This document shows, piece after piece, positions 634 through 8,000 of a stretch of DNA of 29,134 bases. Numbering within the stretch: position 1 is the first letter of the stretch; each line of letters opens with the position of its first letter. A program made the translations under genes and the position numbers. The notes below the pieces were generated by a model. The model searched no databases, was not told where the DNA came from, and worked only from the letters and a program-made list of their open reading frames with translations. The stretch is from Candidatus Roizmanbacteria bacterium CG_4_9_14_0_8_um_filter_34_12 (GTDB taxonomy: Bacteria; Patescibacteriota; Microgenomatia; UBA1406; GWC2-37-13): assembly GCA_002789465.1 (NCBI GenBank), contig PFTH01000074.1, forward strand, positions 1-29,134, in the 5' to 3' direction.

Positions 634-3564
634 TTACTTCCACGCGTCGCAGACGATTTTGAATGGGCAAAAGTCACAGTGGCGACCGGGTTGAGCAGGA
701 TATTGTTGCTGATTAATTTCTCCTGCAGTTTTAATAAGAGTATTCTTTATTAAAACAACATCGGTGTTTGTTTTTTTTATACTAATCTTTTCGTTGTTCT
801 GCAAATAAACGTATGAGAATGTAACTTGAGATAATTTTTTATTTAAAAATTGTTTATCGGTTACCGCCAGTGCGTAAACTGATAGTTGCAAATCTTTTTC
901 TAAGTCCTTAGGGGATGGTTGTTTACCGGTTTTATAGTCAATTATTTCCAGATTCCCCTTAGTATCAGTGTCAATGCGATCAATTTTACCGCTAACGTAG
1001 AGTTGCTGATTTATTTTTAGTTTAAAAAATTGTTCCAAACCAATAATTTTATTTTTCGGCGGATGGAATTTATGAAAATAACTTTCTAATATTTTTTTAC
1101 CTTCACTCTTTACACGGTTTTGATGAGCTTGAGAGTTAAAGCCGATTGGTATCCAGTTATCTCGATATATTTCCAATAATTTTTTAAATTTTACAGACCG
1201 ATTATTCAAATATTCTTTATAAAAATTTTGGAGCGTATTGTGAATGGTCTGTCCGAAACTCGCACTCGAATTGGTTTGATTTGGTAGGTTTAGTTGATAT
1301 CGATAAAAGTAGCGTAAAGGACAAGTTTGATATGTATCAAGATGAGAAAAAGATAATCTTTGTTGTTTAGATGTATGTGGAAGGCTGAGAGAAATTAAAG
1401 GTTTGTTAATTGCAAAGTCATATAAAACTTTTTTACCTTGTGCGAGTTTAGTCATTTGTGGTACATGATTATTTCCGAAAGTTTCTTCAACAAACTGCGA
1501 TATTTTTCGTGAACGTTTTCCATCACCATAGATTAAAGAAGAAGACAAAAATAATCTATTTTTCGCCCTGGTTATAGCAACGTAAAACAATCGTCTTTCT
1601 TCTAAAATATGAGGATTACCGGTTGGTAAAATTTCTTTGATTAATTCATCAGGGATAGGAATGGTTTCGTGGCGGTCATAGGTTGGAAAACGACCTTGAC
1701 TTAAGTTAACTAAAAATACAGTTGGAAATTCTAAACCCTTGGCAGAATGAATCGTTAGTATATGAACTGCGTTTTTATCTGAAAAATCATCACTTGCAGC
1801 TTGTGGTGATTCACCGATTTCTAAACTTAAATTAAGATACTCAACTGTTTGGAAAATCGAAGGTTCTTTCTGTTGATTTTCTAAAGCCTTAATTTTCGTA
1901 AAAAACTTAGCTAGATTAGAAACAGTTGTTTCCGCTAATTTTGTATCCTTTTGACTTAACGTTTTAATAGTGCCGGTTTTATCAAGAAAATCATAAATAA
2001 TTTGACTGGCAGGAAGATTACGTAGTTGTTTTAAATGTTCTTTTATTAAAGTGACTATTTTTAATAATTGTTTTTTGGTTTGACCTGATAAAAGTGGGAT
2101 ATATGGTTGGTAAATTTTATAGTTTTCGTCAAATACTGGTTCAAGTAAGTTTAAATAAATTTCACAAGCATTATATAAAGAAAGATTAGTTTTTCTAGCG
2201 AAACTTACCAAACGTGCAGTATCTTGCGGATTAGTATTGATTATTGACATAGTTAAAACACGGTAAAAAGAAGGAGTGTTTTCTAAATCAACAAGTGTCT
2301 GTAGATAAGCGATTAGATCTTTAATTGCAGGTTGTTTGAAAAGCGCTCCTGGACCGTGAAACTGATAGGGAATTCCATAGTGGGAAAGACTGCGTTGAAA
2401 AGGTTCGCTGTGATTATTGGCGCGAACTAAAATTGAAAAATCTGAAAAATTATTATTCTTACTCAACTTTTTAATTGTTTGTGCCACTGCTTCAGCTTCA
2501 TCAGTATCGTTTTGAAAGAGTTTAAATTCCGGTGGTTGGATACCTCTTTTTGTTTTTGGATATGAAAATAACTCTTTACTAATTCCCAGTTGTGTTTCCA
2601 AAGTGTCAGGATTATTATGACGAACAAGACGATAGGCAGAGTCAAGGATTGATTGATGAGAACGATAATTAGTTATAAGACTTACTTGTTTTGCTTTAGG
2701 ATAGTCTTTGATAAACGCAAGCAAATTTGAAACTGATGCGCCGCGAAATTTGTAAATTGCCTGTGAGTCATCGCCAACTACAGTAATTCTTGATTTTTTT
2801 GAGGGAGGACAAAGAAGTTTAATCAATTGATATTGTGCAATATTTGTATCCTGGAATTCATCTATCAATAGATACTTAAACTTTTGTTGATATATATGCA
2901 GTAAATTTTTTCGAGAACGAAATAACTGAAGTAATAACATAATCAAATCTGCAAAATCACAATATCCTTCTTTGGTTTTCAGTGTTTGAAAAATTTTATA
3001 TGCATTAGCAAGTTCTTGATATTTATTTAAATCTTCAGGATTTAATGTTTTTTTCTTTTTTTGAACTTTTACCCAAATCAAATAATCAAGTGGAGTGATG
3101 TCCTCATCGCGTAGTCTAGAGAAATGTTGAAGTAATCCCTCAATAAATTTATCAGGATTGTTAAGAGGACGATAATAATGAAGTGGTAATAAATATAAAT
3201 TTTTCCGTAAAAAGAGAATTGACTCGGCCTGTGATAATAATCTATACCCAGATGATAATCCAATATGATGAATTTCTTGACGCAAAATCTGGTCGGCAAA
3301 AGAATGAAACGTAGAAATCCAGGTTTGGAAACAACCATAGGGTAGTGCAATGTCAACCCGCTCTTCCATTTCCCGCGCCGCTTTTTCCGTGAATGTCAGA
3401 GCAACAATTTCTTCGGGTTTGGCAAGTTCTTTTTCAATTAAATATTTAATTTTTTCAACCAAGGTAAAAGTTTTTCCTGTTCCCGCCCCGGCAATGATTA
3501 AAAGAGGTCCTTGATGATATTCTATTGCTTGTTTTTGTTTGGAGTTGGGAAGATACGTTGACAT
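634..3564 (-). CDS. UvrD/PcrA-family SF1A DNA helicase fused to a C-terminal RecB-like PD-(D/E)XK nuclease with four Cys (AdnAB/AddAB-like)
   Basis: Helicase motifs AGAGTGKT, IDEFQD, VGDDSQAIYKFRGA, LTIHSAKGLEF and EERRLFYVAITRA; C-terminal CPLRY...GKIDRID...IIDYKTG...QLSVYA...CDFCPFKIVC. Confidence 0.92.
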   Translation of the reverse strand: MSTYLPNSKQKQAIEYHQGPLLIIAGAGTGKTFTLVEKIKYLIEKELAKPEEIVALTFTEKAAREMEERVDIALPYGCFQTWISTFHSFADQILRQEIHHIGLSSGYRLLSQAESILFLRKNLYLLPLHYYRPLNNPDKFIEGLLQHFSRLRDEDITPLDYLIWVKVQKKKKTLNPEDLNKYQELANAYKIFQTLKTKEGYCDFADLIMLLLQLFRSRKNLLHIYQQKFKYLLIDEFQDTNIAQYQLIKLLCPPSKKSRITVVGDDSQAIYKFRGASVSNLLAFIKDYPKAKQVSLITNYRSHQSILDSAYRLVRHNNPDTLETQLGISKELFSYPKTKRGIQPPEFKLFQNDTDEAEAVAQTIKKLSKNNNFSDFSILVRANNHSEPFQRSLSHYGIPYQFHGPGALFKQPAIKDLIAYLQTLVDLENTPSFYRVLTMSIINTNPQDTARLVSFARKTNLSLYNACEIYLNLLEPVFDENYKIYQPYIPLLSGQTKKQLLKIVTLIKEHLKQLRNLPASQIIYDFLDKTGTIKTLSQKDTKLAETTVSNLAKFFTKIKALENQQKEPSIFQTVEYLNLSLEIGESPQAASDDFSDKNAVHILTIHSAKGLEFPTVFLVNLSQGRFPTYDRHETIPIPDELIKEILPTGNPHILEERRLFYVAITRAKNRLFLSSSLIYGDGKRSRKISQFVEETFGNNHVPQMTKLAQGKKVLYDFAINKPLISLSLPHTSKQQRLSFSHLDTYQTCPLRYFYRYQLNLPNQTNSSASFGQTIHNTLQNFYKEYLNNRSVKFKKLLEIYRDNWIPIGFNSQAHQNRVKSEGKKILESYFHKFHPPKNKIIGLEQFFKLKINQQLYVSGKIDRIDTDTKGNLEIIDYKTGKQPSPKDLEKDLQLSVYALAVTDKQFLNKKLSQVTFSYVYLQNNEKISIKKTNTDVVLIKNTLIKTAGEINQQQYPAQPGRHCDFCPFKIVCDAWK

Positions 3565-3570
3565 GAGGTA

Positions 3571-3576
3571 ATTATA
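3571..3576 (-). promoter_or_regulatory. Putative -10 box TATAAT 6 nt upstream of the helicase ATG (leaderless geometry)
   Basis: The plus strand reads ATTATA at 3571-3576 and the start codon is at 3564; no clear -35. Confidence 0.4.
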
Positions 3577-3618
3577 AGGTAAAAGTAATAAGAATAATGA
3601 ATAAAGAATTATAAATAA

Positions 3619-3653
3619 TACAAAATTGAAAATTTTGTAATTCTTATAAGAAT
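3619..3653 (-). terminator. Possible weak terminator or hairpin pair downstream of the membrane protein gene
   Basis: TACAAAATT-gaa-AATTTTGTA (3619-3639) next to a 14-bp palindrome ATTCTTATAAGAAT (3640-3653); U-rich tail on the minus strand; the stems are AT-rich. Confidence 0.3.
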
Positions 3654-3665
3654 AAAAGACTGCTT

Positions 3666-4496
3666 TTATTTCTCAACTTTTTTTATCCGTAACATAAGGT
3701 AGAAAAAAAGCGTAGTGAGTAGAGTTTGGGAAATTAAAAGATAGATAAAGTTAAAACGGAAAACTGTCATTAAAATAAAAGTCAGCATAATCGGTGTGGT
3801 GGATGCGTGATAGGCAATATGATACAAACTATTCCTTTGCCAGTGATGTTTTTGTTTTAGATTACAAATAAAAAGATAAATTGTAATTAGAATAGTTATC
3901 AAAATAAACTGTTGGAACAAAAGCCAAGCGGGTAAAAAAACGATAAAGTAAATTAAAGCTAATTGATAAACAGAAACCAAGCTCCTATATATAATAGGTA
4001 TATTATTAATAATTGTTTTATGGTCGATTTGTAAAGAGGCGCTTGGCAATGGAAAAATAAAAGGTTTTTGTTGTTGCCACTTATTACTGACGACGATATT
4101 CGTTGCGGATAAAAGAATAACAGAGTTATATTCTAAAATTTTTTTAGTTTCAGCTGTTTCATCAACCACAACTAAGGGTTGGAAACGTTTTTGGTTTAGA
4201 CGAAAAAAATACGGTTTGTAATAATTAGTTGAAAGAAAACCCCGATCAATTTTGATAACTAACTCTTCAGGAAAAATAGAAAGTGCAGAAATAACTTGAT
4301 TTTTTAAAATCCTAAACTTACTTGGACGAAAATGCCAAAGATTAATCAATCCGCCCAATATTTGCAATATTATAGCTAAGACAAGTAGATAGTTTAAGGT
4401 TAAAGACCAATGAGAGTGAAAAAGATGATTATAAAAGTCGTGTTTGAGGGTAGCGCTTTGTATAAATGTTTGTAAAAATCGCTTGACTTTGTTCAT
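3666..4496 (-). CDS. Multi-pass membrane protein, possibly DUF1189-like
   Basis: N-terminal TM segment, soluble middle region and about three C-terminal hydrophobic segments. ATG 4496 (MNKVKRF) is preferred because the track's TTG 4535 coincides with a -35 box. The family assignment is from memory only. Confidence 0.65.
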   Translation of the reverse strand: MNKVKRFLQTFIQSATLKHDFYNHLFHSHWSLTLNYLLVLAIILQILGGLINLWHFRPSKFRILKNQVISALSIFPEELVIKIDRGFLSTNYYKPYFFRLNQKRFQPLVVVDETAETKKILEYNSVILLSATNIVVSNKWQQQKPFIFPLPSASLQIDHKTIINNIPIIYRSLVSVYQLALIYFIVFLPAWLLFQQFILITILITIYLFICNLKQKHHWQRNSLYHIAYHASTTPIMLTFILMTVFRFNFIYLLISQTLLTTLFFYLMLRIKKVEK

Positions 4497-4506
4497 TGAT
4501 ATCTTT

Positions 4507-4535
4507 ATCATAAAAAACATTGGTAATAAATTCAA
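4507..4535 (-). promoter_or_regulatory. sigma70-type promoter TTGAAT-17-TATGAT for the membrane protein gene
   Basis: Minus strand -35 at 4535-4530, 17-nt spacer, -10 at 4512-4507, 10 nt before ATG 4496. Confidence 0.55.
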
Positions 4536-4559
4536 CTCGCGTTATTTATCAAACTGCGG

Positions 4560-4588
4560 TTGCATTTTAATTTTGCGGCATCTATAAT
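4560..4588 (+). promoter_or_regulatory. sigma70-type promoter TTGCAT-17-TATAAT for tuf-rpsJ
   Basis: -35 at 4560-4565, exact 17-nt spacer, perfect -10 at 4583-4588, 47 nt upstream of tuf. Confidence 0.75.
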
Positions 4589-4635
4589 AATGCCAACTTA
4601 TTTATTATCATTATTTATAAATTTATTTTAATAAT

Positions 4636-5820
4636 ATGGCACAAGCTGTCTTTTTGAGAAATAAACCGCATTTAAACATTGGAACAATCGGTCATGTTGA
4701 TCATGGAAAAACCACTCTTACTTCCGCTATCCATTATGTTTTATCAAAAAAAGGATTAGCAAAATTTCTTAAATATGAAGAAATTGATAAAGCTCCAGAA
4801 GAAAAAGCACGTGGAGTGACTATTAATCTTCATCATTCTGAATATGAAACCGCAAAGCGTCACTATGCACATATCGATGCTCCAGGACACGCTGATTATA
4901 TTAAAAACATGATTACCGGTGCTGCTCAAATGGATGGAGCAATTCTTGTAGTTTCTGCTCCGGACGGACCAATGCCTCAAACACGAGAACATATTTTACT
5001 TGCTCAACAAGTTAATGTTCCGGGAATTATAGTTTTCTTAAACAAATGTGATATGGTTCAAGATAAAGAAATCCTAGATTTAGTGGAAATGGAAGTTCGA
5101 GATCTGTTGACAAAGTATAAATTCCCAGGTGATAAGATTCCTGTTATTCGTGGATCAGCATTAAAAGCCCTATCTGATGATCCAGAAGGAATCAAGGCGA
5201 TTGAAAAATTAATGAAAACAGTTGATGAATATTTTCCAGAACCGATTCGTCCACTTGACAAACCATTCTTAATGCCGGTTGAAGATGTTTTTACAATTTC
5301 CGGGAGAGGAACGGTTGCAACAGGTAGAGTTGAAAGAGGAGTAATCAAAACTGGAGAAGAGGTGGAGATCGTTGGTATTAAAAATACAAAAAAATCTGTC
5401 ATTACCGGAGTTGAGATGTTTAGAAAGACCTTAGATGAGGCTCGAGCTGGTGATAACGTTGGATTATTACTTAGAGGAATTGAAAAAGATGACATTCAAC
5501 GTGGACAAGTAATTGCAAAACCAGGCTCAATCACTCCACATACAGAGTTTGAAGCAGAAGTTTATATTTTAAAAAAAGAAGAGGGTGGTCGACACACACC
5601 ATTTTTTAAGGGATATCGTCCACAGTTTTACATCAGAACAACAGATATCACAGGTGAACTTAATTTACCAGAAAAGGTAGAAATGGTGATGCCCGGAGAT
5701 AATGTTAAGATCACTGGAAAATTAATTTATCCTGTTGCAATGGAAGCAGGATTAAAGTTTGCCATTCGTGAAGGTGGTCACACAGTTGGAGCTGGTGTGA
5801 TTACGAAGATTATCAAATAA
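4636..5820 (+). CDS. tuf: Elongation factor Tu
   Basis: [28 protein letters not shown]; 394 aa. Confidence 0.99.
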
Positions 5821-5863
5821 CAAAATCAGAGATAATCTATCAGTAATTGAGCTCTTTTAAATT

Positions 5864-6172
5864 ATGCCAAAGGGAAGAATTCGGATTAAACTTAAAGCGT
5901 ATGATTATCGTTTAATTGATGAAACCTGCCAAAAATTGGTTGATACGGCAGTGCGTACTGGAGCATCGGTTATCGGTCCAGTTCCATTACCTGTTCATAA
6001 AGAGACATATATGGTTAATAAAGCATCATTTATCGATAAAAACGCTCGTGAACGCTTTGGCTTAAAAATACACAAACGTCTACTTGACATTGTTAACCCC
6101 ACTAATCAAACAATTGATTCACTCATGCATTTAGAATTACCTGCCGGTGTTGAAGTGTTAGTCAAGATGTAA
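5864..6172 (+). CDS. rpsJ: 30S ribosomal protein S10
   Basis: RIRIKLKAYDYRLID...GPVPLP...HKRLLDI. Confidence 0.98.
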   Translation: MPKGRIRIKLKAYDYRLIDETCQKLVDTAVRTGASVIGPVPLPVHKETYMVNKASFIDKNARERFGLKIHKRLLDIVNPTNQTIDSLMHLELPAGVEVLVKM

Positions 6173-6181
6173 AAAATCTGG

Positions 6182-6210
6182 TTGACCGACAGTCTTTAAT
6201 AATATATAAT
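6182..6210 (+). promoter_or_regulatory. Internal sigma70-type promoter TTGACC-17-TATAAT upstream of rplC
   Basis: -35 at 6182-6187 (5/6 match to TTGACA), 17-nt spacer, perfect -10 at 6205-6210. Confidence 0.75.
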
Positions 6211-6218
6211 AGTTCCCG

Positions 6219-6260
6219 ATGATAATTTTGTATCAACAAACTTATTATTGTTATTTTTAA
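6219..6260 (+). CDS. Candidate leader peptide (uORF) MIILYQQTYYCYF*
   Basis: ATG 8 nt after the -10 box; TAA at 6258-6260 is 2 nt before the antiterminator 5' arm; four TAT codons. It is short enough to be chance. Confidence 0.4.
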   Translation: MIILYQQTYYCYF

Positions 6261-6262
6261 AG

Positions 6263-6293
6263 CAGATTGGTTGAAATTGTCAGCCCCAATCTG
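6263..6293 (+). promoter_or_regulatory. Putative antiterminator hairpin of the rplC leader
   Basis: CAGATT/AATCTG plus GGTTGA/TCAGCC: 12 pairs (one G.U), a 2-nt bulge and a 5-nt loop; sequesters the 5' arm and loop of the terminator. Confidence 0.65.
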
Positions 6294-6303
6294 GGGCTTT
6301 TTT
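6282..6303 (+). terminator. Intrinsic terminator in the rplC leader
   Basis: AGCCCCA-atc-TGGGGCT followed by TTTTT; 5 G-C pairs. Confidence 0.75.
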
Positions 6304-6322
6304 ATTTGATTAATTTCTATTT

Positions 6323-6997
6323 ATGACAGGTTTTATTCTTGGACAAAAAAATAAACAGACACAAGCATATAATACGGCTGGTATTCGTATACCAGTAACA
6401 TATATTAAAACCTCTCCTTGTTATTTAATTGCTATTCAAAAACCAGAAACACAACGTTATTTTGCTATTAAACTGGGTTTTGGATTAGCCAATCAAATTA
6501 AAAAATCAACTTTTGGAGAAGTTAAAAAGGCGGGGATAATGACCCCGCTTAATTTTTATAAAGAGTTTCGGTTAGAGAAACATCCAACAATTAAAGCAAT
6601 CGAAGAGAATGGAAAAAGTGGAATATCAGTCGGAGATAAAAAAATGCTAATTGGAGATTTGATTGATGCTTCTATTTTTTTTAAACCCGGTGATAAGGTG
6701 CAAGTCAGTGCCATTGCTAAAGGTAAGGGGTTTCAAGGAGTAGTTACTCGTCATCATTTTAAAGGTGGTCCTCATACTCATGGACAGTCAGATCGCGAAA
6801 GAGCTCCTGGTTCAATTGGGCAAACTACTACGCCAGGACGGGTTTATAAAGGAAAACGTATGGCAGGGCGAATGGGAGGACAACGGGTAACAATAAAAAA
6901 TTTAGTTATACATGAAGTTACAAAAGAAAGTATCGCCATTGCGGGTTTAATTCCGGGGAGTAAAAAAGCAAATGTCGAAATCATAAGTAAAACCTAA
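6323..6997 (+). CDS. rplC: 50S ribosomal protein L3
   Basis: KGKGFQGVVTRHHF, HGQSDRERAPGSIG, RVYKGKRMAGRMG. Confidence 0.98.
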   Translation: MTGFILGQKNKQTQAYNTAGIRIPVTYIKTSPCYLIAIQKPETQRYFAIKLGFGLANQIKKSTFGEVKKAGIMTPLNFYKEFRLEKHPTIKAIEENGKSGISVGDKKMLIGDLIDASIFFKPGDKVQVSAIAKGKGFQGVVTRHHFKGGPHTHGQSDRERAPGSIGQTTTPGRVYKGKRMAGRMGGQRVTIKNLVIHEVTKESIAIAGLIPGSKKANVEIISKT

Positions 6998-7011
6998 TTA
7001 TTAATAATAGT

Positions 7012-7710
7012 ATGGAAACAAAAAGTAAATTAAAAAAATTGGAAAAAAATCTTACTAAAAAGAAAGTTGTTGATTCAAATGGTACTAACTTGAATATTTA
7101 TAATAGTGAAGGTAAGCAAAGTGCTACGATTGAGTTGGATAAAAAATGGGCTAAGGTGAAAATTAATCCAAAGACTCTTGCTCAATATGTCCACATTTAT
7201 TTAACTAACCAAAGGCAAGGAACGGTTTCAGCAAAAACTCGGGGTGACATTATTGGTTCGACTAAAAAAATATACAAACAAAAAGGAACAGGACGAGCAC
7301 GGCATGGGAGTCGAAAAGCGCCAATTTTTGTTGGTGGCGGTGTTGTTGGAGGACCAAAACCAAGATTATTTTCTTCTCGTTTTAACAAACAACAGTTAAC
7401 AATAACCATTCAGGCGGCACTCGCAACAAAATTAAAAAATAAAGAGGTGATTATTTTAGAAGATAGTGCATTAAAAATGCCTTTAAAAACAAAGTCATAT
7501 GCACAAATGTTTAATCAAATTAATCCAAAACGCCAGGAATGTTTATTGCTCTTAACAGAAGATAATAATAACGCCCGTCAAGCATGTAATAATATTCCAT
7601 ATATAAAAATGGAAATTCTAAGAAATCTTAACCCATATATAATTTTAAGATATAAGTTAATAATAATGACAGTTAGTATGTTGACAGATTTAACAAAACA
7701 GCTTAAATAA
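7012..7710 (+). CDS. rplD: 50S ribosomal protein L4 with Lys-rich N-terminal extension
   Basis: QKGTGRARHGSRKAPIFVGGGVVGGPKPR. Confidence 0.98.
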   Translation: METKSKLKKLEKNLTKKKVVDSNGTNLNIYNSEGKQSATIELDKKWAKVKINPKTLAQYVHIYLTNQRQGTVSAKTRGDIIGSTKKIYKQKGTGRARHGSRKAPIFVGGGVVGGPKPRLFSSRFNKQQLTITIQAALATKLKNKEVIILEDSALKMPLKTKSYAQMFNQINPKRQECLLLLTEDNNNARQACNNIPYIKMEILRNLNPYIILRYKLIIMTVSMLTDLTKQLK

Positions 7711-7712
7711 AT

Positions 7713-8000
7713 ATGAAACTATCAGATGTGATTATAAAACCATTAATTACAGAAAAAGCTACTGGAAAAGCACAAATCGAAGTCTATACTTTTGTAATTC
7801 ATAATCAAGCTGGAAAAGCTCAGATAAAAACAGTTTTAGAAAGTATATATAAAGTTAAGGTTAAATCAGTTAACATTACGAATCGTCATGGTAAAACAAG
7901 AAGAGTGGGAAAATACCGATTAGTTAAAACACTACCAAATAAAAAAATTGCATACGTTACACTGAAGTCGGGTCAAATTGATATTTTTCCAAAAGCATAA
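7713..8000 (+). CDS. rplW: 50S ribosomal protein L23
   Basis: VIIKPLITEKA...KKIAYVTL. Confidence 0.96.
   Translation: MKLSDVIIKPLITEKATGKAQIEVYTFVIHNQAGKAQIKTVLESIYKVKVKSVNITNRHGKTRRVGKYRLVKTLPNKKIAYVTLKSGQIDIFPKA

Follow-up and report, generated by a model that had tools for sequence, protein, structure and literature searches.

A short reading frame with conserved start and stop in a candidate transcription attenuator upstream of rplC in Patescibacteria

How do bacteria with minimal regulatory repertoires, as Patescibacteria are, adjust the output of a ribosomal-protein operon? Such operons are classically controlled by their own proteins, which bind mRNA mimics of rRNA, and the RNAs concerned are narrowly distributed. 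To our knowledge, nothing is known of this control in Patescibacteria. The question is raised by the 150-nt spacer between rpsJ and rplC in a Candidatus Roizmanbacteria genome (1.15 Mb, ~31% GC, 241 contigs), which lies in a window of 29,134 nt (the whole stretch of DNA that was analysed). A first-pass annotation had pointed to a leaderless 13-codon upstream ORF (uORF) in this spacer, placed so that a ribosome at its stop codon might flip an antiterminator/terminator switch. We compared the spacer with related loci, whose sequences are labelled Roizmanbacteria, Microgenomates or Patescibacteria.

Anatomy of the spacer between rpsJ and rplC

The gene order on the + strand is tuf (4636–5820), rpsJ encoding S10 (5864–6172), the spacer and rplC encoding L3 (6323–6997), which is followed by a long ribosomal-protein operon. 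The limits of rpsJ and rplC were taken from the ORF list, and the rpsJ product has matches of 72–85% identity in 40 of 41 relatives. rplC, the first gene of the operon that the leader would control, has no preceding SD. Within the spacer, a promoter (6182–6210) is formed by a −35 element TTGACC (6182–6187), a 17-nt spacer and a −10 box TATAAT (6205–6210); it matches the consensus at 11 of 12 positions and is the top promoter match within 3500–8000. The −10 box is of the extended type (TATATAAT, from 6203). Among 59 related leaders, the extended box is present in 43, and a −35 element matching at least four of six positions at 16–18 nt spacing is found in 50.

Eight nucleotides (6211–6218) separate the −10 box from the ATG of the uORF (6219–6221), which runs through 13 sense codons to a TAA at 6258–6260 and encodes the peptide MIILYQQTYYCYF, with four TAT codons. 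In MFE folds, a hairpin that we call P1 (6219–6248) lies inside the uORF with the AUG paired at its base. The 5′ arm of the antiterminator (6263–6274) carries the conserved core CAGATTGG (6263–6270), which begins 2 nt past the uORF stop and whose exact reverse complement, CCAATCTG (6286–6293), sits within the terminator hairpin (6282–6298). The 3′ arm of the antiterminator (6280–6293) overlaps the terminator, taking in its 5′ arm, the loop and two bases at the start of its 3′ arm. The intrinsic terminator itself (6282–6307) is composed of a 7-bp stem (6282–6288 / 6292–6298), the loop ATC and a T-run. The coordinates given in the first-pass annotation hold to the base.

The leader motif was not found elsewhere in the genome, which makes it a single-locus element. 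Among public sequencing runs, the sequence was found only in DNA metagenomes of groundwater and aquifers, with no RNA run among those listed. Within rplC, a GC-rich 8-bp hairpin with T-rich flanks (6528–6550) was flagged on both strands by the terminator scan.

Conservation of the leader and its uORF

Relatives were collected in two samples. The first was an unbiased set of 41 genomes from the same order, covering three families (f1–f3), from which the regions upstream of rplC were taken. The second was a pattern scan with one genome per species; it returned many chance matches in unrelated phyla, and loci were retained only if the L3 gene was adjacent. Because loci from the scan were ascertained on arm and terminator, we restricted the pairing statistics to the unbiased relatives. 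A looser, class-wide pattern was too noisy to set the distribution beyond the order. Leaders of at least 70% identity were merged into 30 clusters; single linkage at 60% had put them all into one cluster and was not used.

In 37 of the 41 sampled genomes, and in all three families, rplC is preceded by the same leader, with a shared layout of promoter, variable hairpin, C(A/G)GATTGG, spacer and GCCCCAATCTGGGGC-like terminator. The four genomes without it belong to the same family (G005, G007, G016 and G020; loci L157, L158, L163 and L164, respectively): G005 has a different hairpin and no ATG, the rpsJ–rplC gap of G007 is only 39 nt, and no leader was seen before rplC in G016 and G020. In family f3 (L165, L167, L168, L170, L172, L174, L176 and L178), the promoter of the rplC leader lies inside the end of rpsJ, with TTGACG in the last codons and TATAAT overlapping the TAA stop, and the leader begins directly at that stop. 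The uORF ATG of these f3 leaders is 8–21 nt past the −10 box, and the f3 uORF is not strictly leaderless. Several metagenome-assembled contigs titled "uncultured Gammaproteobacteria" (L037, L047, L050, L053, L086, L090, L096, L098, L099 and L106) carry a Patescibacteria-type rpsJ–leader–rplC locus with S10 identity of 75–84%; these titles look wrong.

An ATG is kept in 59 unique leaders upstream of rplC and lies 7–10 nt past the −10 box in 47 of them, a count affected by bias in that the ATG was hand-picked for the eight f3 leaders and for L037. The uORF is 9–13 codons long in 52 of the 59 (mode 11). Its stop falls 5–10 nt before the 8-nt core arm in 42 leaders, with a mode of 6 nt (17 at exactly this distance). 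When all three frames were compared, 57 of 59 leaders had their first frame-0 stop between −3 and 16 nt before the arm; the other two frames gave counts of 5 and 16, and any given frame has a stop in this arm-proximal interval in only 53% of cases. In frame 0, 58 of 59 leaders have no stop as far as 16 nt before the arm, the corresponding counts for frames +1 and +2 being 16 and 33. The pattern persists after clustering: the first in-frame stop lies 0–16 nt before the arm in 28 of 30 clusters, compared with 3 and 5 for frames +1 and +2. About 20% of shuffles show the cluster stop pattern, which gives a naive P of ~6e-18 that is inflated by relatedness, although the ORFs have diverged to the point that their peptides no longer resemble each other.

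The first-pass annotation had named, as an outcome that would count against its reading, relatives that retain the hairpins but not the start and stop of the uORF; the opposite was observed, with both positions conserved across the three families. Judged by this comparison, the leader has at its start a positionally conserved short ORF of the kind found in attenuators, and we consider it probable, with a good degree of confidence, that the uORF is real and tied to the switch. Departures from the pattern were also identified. In L015, ATT replaces ATG in an intact 11-codon frame, and L131 and L110 retain the arm and terminator without an ATG.

The uORF peptides are unrelated among leaders, with no residue or codon conserved, which suggests that the act of translation and not the peptide is what is conserved. 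Regulatory codons for a cognate amino acid were not found across the 59 uORFs. The first-pass annotation had drawn attention to the tyrosine codons, and we rejected tyrosine-codon sensing: tyrosine makes up 2.8% of uORF residues, at least two tyrosines occur in only 3 of 59 uORFs, and the four TAT codons are peculiar to the uORF of the window.

The wider genome offers a context for a start codon so close to a promoter. Of 843 ORFs of at least 120 aa, 137 have a TA.AAT box whose end lies 6–9 nt 5′ of the ATG (60, 32, 32 and 13 ORFs at offsets of 6, 7, 8 and 9 nt), as compared with ~5 ORFs at each other offset. The leaderless placement noted in the first pass, with the ATG 8 nt past the −10 box, is the norm of this genome. 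SD-like tetramers gave no genome-wide peak before ORFs; the 16S 3′ end still has CCTCC. This box-to-ATG geometry and the absence of an SD signal together suggest that a 5′-terminal AUG is a normal start signal here, and first genes in this Patescibacterium seem to be translated mainly by leaderless initiation. None of eight tRNA genes has an ATG 6–9 nt past its upstream TATAAT, which argues that the uORF ATG is not a generic promoter element. The uORF AUG is ~2 nt further from the −10 box (mode 8–9) than the AUG of leaderless genes (mode 6), so a 5′ UTR of 1–3 nt is possible.

Two paralogous leaders with leaderless uORFs were observed on another contig of the same genome (contig C110 of G000; L155:1100–1270 and L155:2350–2570). 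Each has TTGACA..TATAAT, 7 nt, an ATG and a uORF of 22 or 24 codons, with two adjacent Arg codons (AGG CGT) placed in the loop of a hairpin that is long, followed by a strong terminator. Within an arginine-biosynthesis cluster, these leaders stand before a gene for an ArgE-like M20 peptidase and before argG, with OTCase and an ArgH-like lyase downstream. From their sequence, they look like classical Arg attenuators on leaderless leader peptides, and their presence in the same genome suggests that this lineage builds attenuators on leaderless uORFs.

Terminator, antiterminator and P1 hairpin

Pairing was evaluated on 28 alignable leaders from the unbiased relatives. The terminator stem covaries: four of seven pairs change on both sides, and none of 500 shuffles reached the observed score. 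By this test, an intrinsic terminator lies between the uORF and the first structural gene, as is expected of an attenuator. In the same leaders, 95% of antiterminator cells are paired; there are 19 one-sided changes, all of which keep a G.U wobble on the + strand, and one both-sided change, and variation in the helix is too low to compute a covariation statistic. Putatively compensatory variants were identified in L178 (loop AATCC, arm AGGATTGG) and L025 (loop TGTCT, arm GGACAG). These data favour the antiterminator/terminator pair described in the first pass. A palindromic operator acting at the DNA level was considered and rejected, given that arm spacing ranges from ~15 to 37 nt and that G.U is kept on the + strand only.

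The two alternative structures are predicted to be nearly isoenergetic, at about −11 versus −8 to −13 kcal/mol. When the leader in the window was folded stepwise, P1 together with the antiterminator gave the MFE structure for transcripts ending at 6293–6295, and the terminator became the preferred fold only from 6297, after its 3′ arm had emerged. Masking the transcript up to 6266–6272, which leaves the first arm bases single-stranded, results in a predicted fold with the terminator only. As a rule, the best antiterminator duplex runs beyond the 8-nt core in the 5′ direction (mean 9.7 bp) and pairs with the G-run of the terminator 3′ arm. Measured to this extended helix, the gap from the uORF stop has a median of 5 nt; it is at most 5 nt in 36 of 59 leaders, at most 8 nt in 47 and at least 10 nt in 10. 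In the short leaders L003 and L045, which have no P1, the arm falls inside the uORF, which fits masking of the arm by a ribosome.

The arm and the terminator loop are nearly invariant in the three families, with the outer terminator pairs and P1 varying freely. Specifically, GATTGG and CCAATCTGG are nearly invariant across families whose L3 proteins are only 45–60% identical. This near-invariance beyond the needs of pairing, together with the leaders that have no uORF, suggests an additional trans factor that would read the sequence. We found no resemblance to rRNA at the sequence level when the arm, terminator loop and P1-loop motifs were compared with the genome's own 16S and with the 23S of three relatives. 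Searches against Rfam, at gathering thresholds and with E up to 10, yielded no match above threshold; those below it were driven by the terminator.

P1 is a hairpin of variable sequence that occupies the same place in nearly all relatives, with a predicted dG of about −4 to −16 kcal/mol and a mean z of only −1.2 against shuffles. The AUG is partly or fully paired at its base in ~27 of 43 predicted folds. One subfamily (L002, L007, L018, L037, L047, L048, L086, L090, L096, L117 and L125) keeps UUGUUCGGGAA in the P1 loop, and this motif (UUCGGGAA / UUGUUCGGGAA) has its complement in UUUCCGGA, a sequence that overlaps the antiterminator arm. Their pairing could form a pseudoknot or act as an anti-antiterminator. 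An anti-antiterminator common to the leaders found no support, the mean z for complementarity between upstream sequence and arm being −0.33. Separately, the distance from the terminator T-run to the rplC start is often at most 10 nt in relatives (L002, L042, L086, L110 and L120); a start so near the T-run means that the terminator hairpin could also gate rplC translation.

Candidate mechanism and alternative readings

We propose, with moderate confidence, that the leader is a ribosome-mediated transcription attenuator of the leader-peptide type that acts before rplC without regulatory codons. Transcription would start at the AUG or 1–2 nt before it. We infer that a ribosome captures this 5′ AUG, and it would then translate ~11 codons (13 in the window), melt P1 and halt at the stop just 5′ of the antiterminator, at a distance from the core arm of 2 nt in the window and of 6 nt at the family mode. 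The halted ribosome would occlude the outer antiterminator pairs, those that hold the G-run of the terminator 3′ arm, upon which the terminator would form and transcription would end before rplC. If the ribosome were absent or lagging, P1 and the antiterminator would fold first and RNA polymerase would read through. This direction of effect, in which uORF translation favours termination, is in our judgement an even call.

With no codon or residue conserved, translation itself is what can be sensed. The leader would report how quickly ribosomes engage with the nascent mRNA, and so would exert negative feedback on ribosomal-protein synthesis. As a matter of speculation, closure of P1 over the AUG may end the period open to leaderless initiation and make the leader sensitive to the concentration of free ribosomes. 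More tentatively, and with some doubt on our part, the leader might serve as a repressor-free gauge of ribosome capacity, the frequency of abortion being set by 70S capture of the 5′ AUG before P1 closes.

The reach of the halted ribosome deserves consideration. Its footprint edge usually lies ~9–10 nt past the stop codon, as toeprints and frameshift-spacer geometry indicate, and the 12–15 nt assumed in the first-pass annotation is too generous. Helices that stimulate frameshifting are intact at the ribosome entrance. The modal 6-nt gap puts the core arm about where such helices stay intact, so occlusion would be partial at best.

That the uORF is a chance ORF in AT-rich spacer DNA has a virtually negligible probability. 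The expected length at this composition is ~12 codons, and the first-pass caveat that 13-codon ORFs arise by chance is sound for the window alone, where such an ORF is unremarkable at 31% GC; it does not survive the inclusion of relatives, since the comparative data (28 of 30 clusters; 57 of 59 leaders) make the frame significant and refute chance. We also regard it as highly improbable that the ATG and the frame are conserved for a non-translational reason, such as a 5′-end RNA motif or the base of P1, in a uORF that is never read. This reading draws on the frequent predicted pairing of the AUG at the P1 base, yet a paired triplet would covary and the ATG is invariant whatever its partner. 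Neither the frame-specific openness of the uORF nor its frame-specific stop interval has an RNA-only explanation, and the distance from −10 box to ATG matches that of 137 real genes of the genome.

The two remaining alternatives accept a switch and differ on what drives it. With the polarity reversed, the ribosome would melt P1 and competitors of the arm and stop just short of the arm, the antiterminator would form, and the operon would be transcribed only when its leader is translated. On its left side, the distribution of gaps breaks off sharply at 5–6 nt in linkers that are otherwise unrelated, as if the ribosome must abut and not enter the core arm. Sequestration of the arm would be provided in one subfamily by the P1-loop motif, which can pair over it, and the full-length MFE fold of the leader in the window pairs the 5′ part of the uORF with the arm/spacer region, beside the terminator. 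Nevertheless, this polarity is unlikely: complementarity between upstream sequence and arm is not general (~10 of 58 leaders below z −2, partly P1 itself), the arm is predicted to be mostly free as long as the terminator has not emerged (mean pairing probability 0.35), and in eight leaders the stop is at most 2 nt from the arm or inside it, where a ribosome would destroy the antiterminator. Feedback would moreover be positive, an odd arrangement for ribosomal proteins. Alternatively, one of the operon's own ribosomal proteins (L4, if E. coli is a guide, or else L3 or another) might mainly run the switch by reading GATTGG / CCAATCTGG, with the uORF as an auxiliary that, for example, releases a P1-induced pause, excludes Rho or loads ribosomes. 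We place this on the unlikely side. It would account for the near-invariance of arm and loop beside freely varying outer terminator pairs and P1, and for the leaders L131 and L110 that keep arm and terminator without a uORF; Rho is encoded in the genome, and comparable attenuators are known in the S10 leader with L4 (PMC3616713), rplJL (PMC4538822) and infC with L20 (PMC1865079). It leaves unexplained why the stop keeps so tight a position with respect to the arm, however, and is not helped by the lack of sequence resemblance to the genome's own 16S or to relatives' 23S rRNA, or by a leader that is short and C-poor and hence a poor Rho substrate. The uORF stop and the rplC AUG are ~50 to >200 nt apart with a hairpin between them, and we judged re-initiation at rplC unlikely over so variable a distance.

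Comparison with known systems and significance

The proposed ribosome-mediated attenuator shares with the trp, his, phe, thr and leu attenuators a promoter-proximal short ORF with a 5′ hairpin inside, antiterminator and terminator hairpins, which in the rplC leader are predicted to exclude each other, and a stop beside the 5′ strand of the antiterminator. Unlike those systems, the rplC leader has neither conserved regulatory codons nor a conserved peptide, its ORF is putatively leaderless, and its target is a ribosomal-protein operon. Moreover, its 5′ hairpin does not overlap the antiterminator, so the predicted default in the untranslated state is read-through and not super-attenuation. Attenuators of the ermC, vmlR and bmrCD type also sense the state of the ribosome translating a short uORF and not an amino acid; there, stalling is induced by drugs and the peptide sequence matters, whereas the peptide of the rplC leader is free to vary.

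Leaderless uORFs have been described in other bacteria. In Deinococcus deserti, 14 leaderless leader peptides are predicted (PMC4007540), and polycysteine leaderless uORFs have been shown to act in mycobacteria for cysteine (10.1101/834739). As is predicted for the uORF described here, these start at the transcript 5′ end without an SD and govern downstream genes, but each is enriched in a single amino acid, the supply of which it senses, a bias that the rplC uORF does not have. The true counterpart of this class is found in the Arg leaders of contig C110.

Among ribosomal-protein operons, the E. coli S10 leader mediates L4- and NusA-dependent attenuation (PMC3616713) and is likewise a terminator-based attenuator for rplC-rplD-rplW-rplB and the following genes. 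It is located before rpsJ, has five hairpins and no leader peptide, and is confined to Gammaproteobacteria, whereas the leader described here lies between rpsJ and rplC and does not share the E. coli HD/HE hairpin architecture; no Rfam family came near threshold. The B. subtilis rplJL and infC-rpmI-rplT leaders also combine ribosomal-protein operons with antiterminator/terminator alternatives, but in both a ribosomal protein binds an anti-antiterminator (PMC4538822, PMC1865079). rplJL has a leader peptide as well; it is encoded 3′ of the terminator behind an SD and has been proposed to block Rho.

Placed before rplC, a leader peptide that lacks regulatory codons would follow a different logic from these systems, with the ribosome itself as the sensed quantity. 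The reliance of the lineage on leaderless mRNAs rather than SD can be read from the genome sequence alone. The element is short and sharply defined and can be tested in vitro with existing 70S and PURE systems. If the proposed attenuation is correct, it would constitute direct feedback from the ribosome to an operon of ~30 ribosomal-protein genes, conserved across an order of Patescibacteria.
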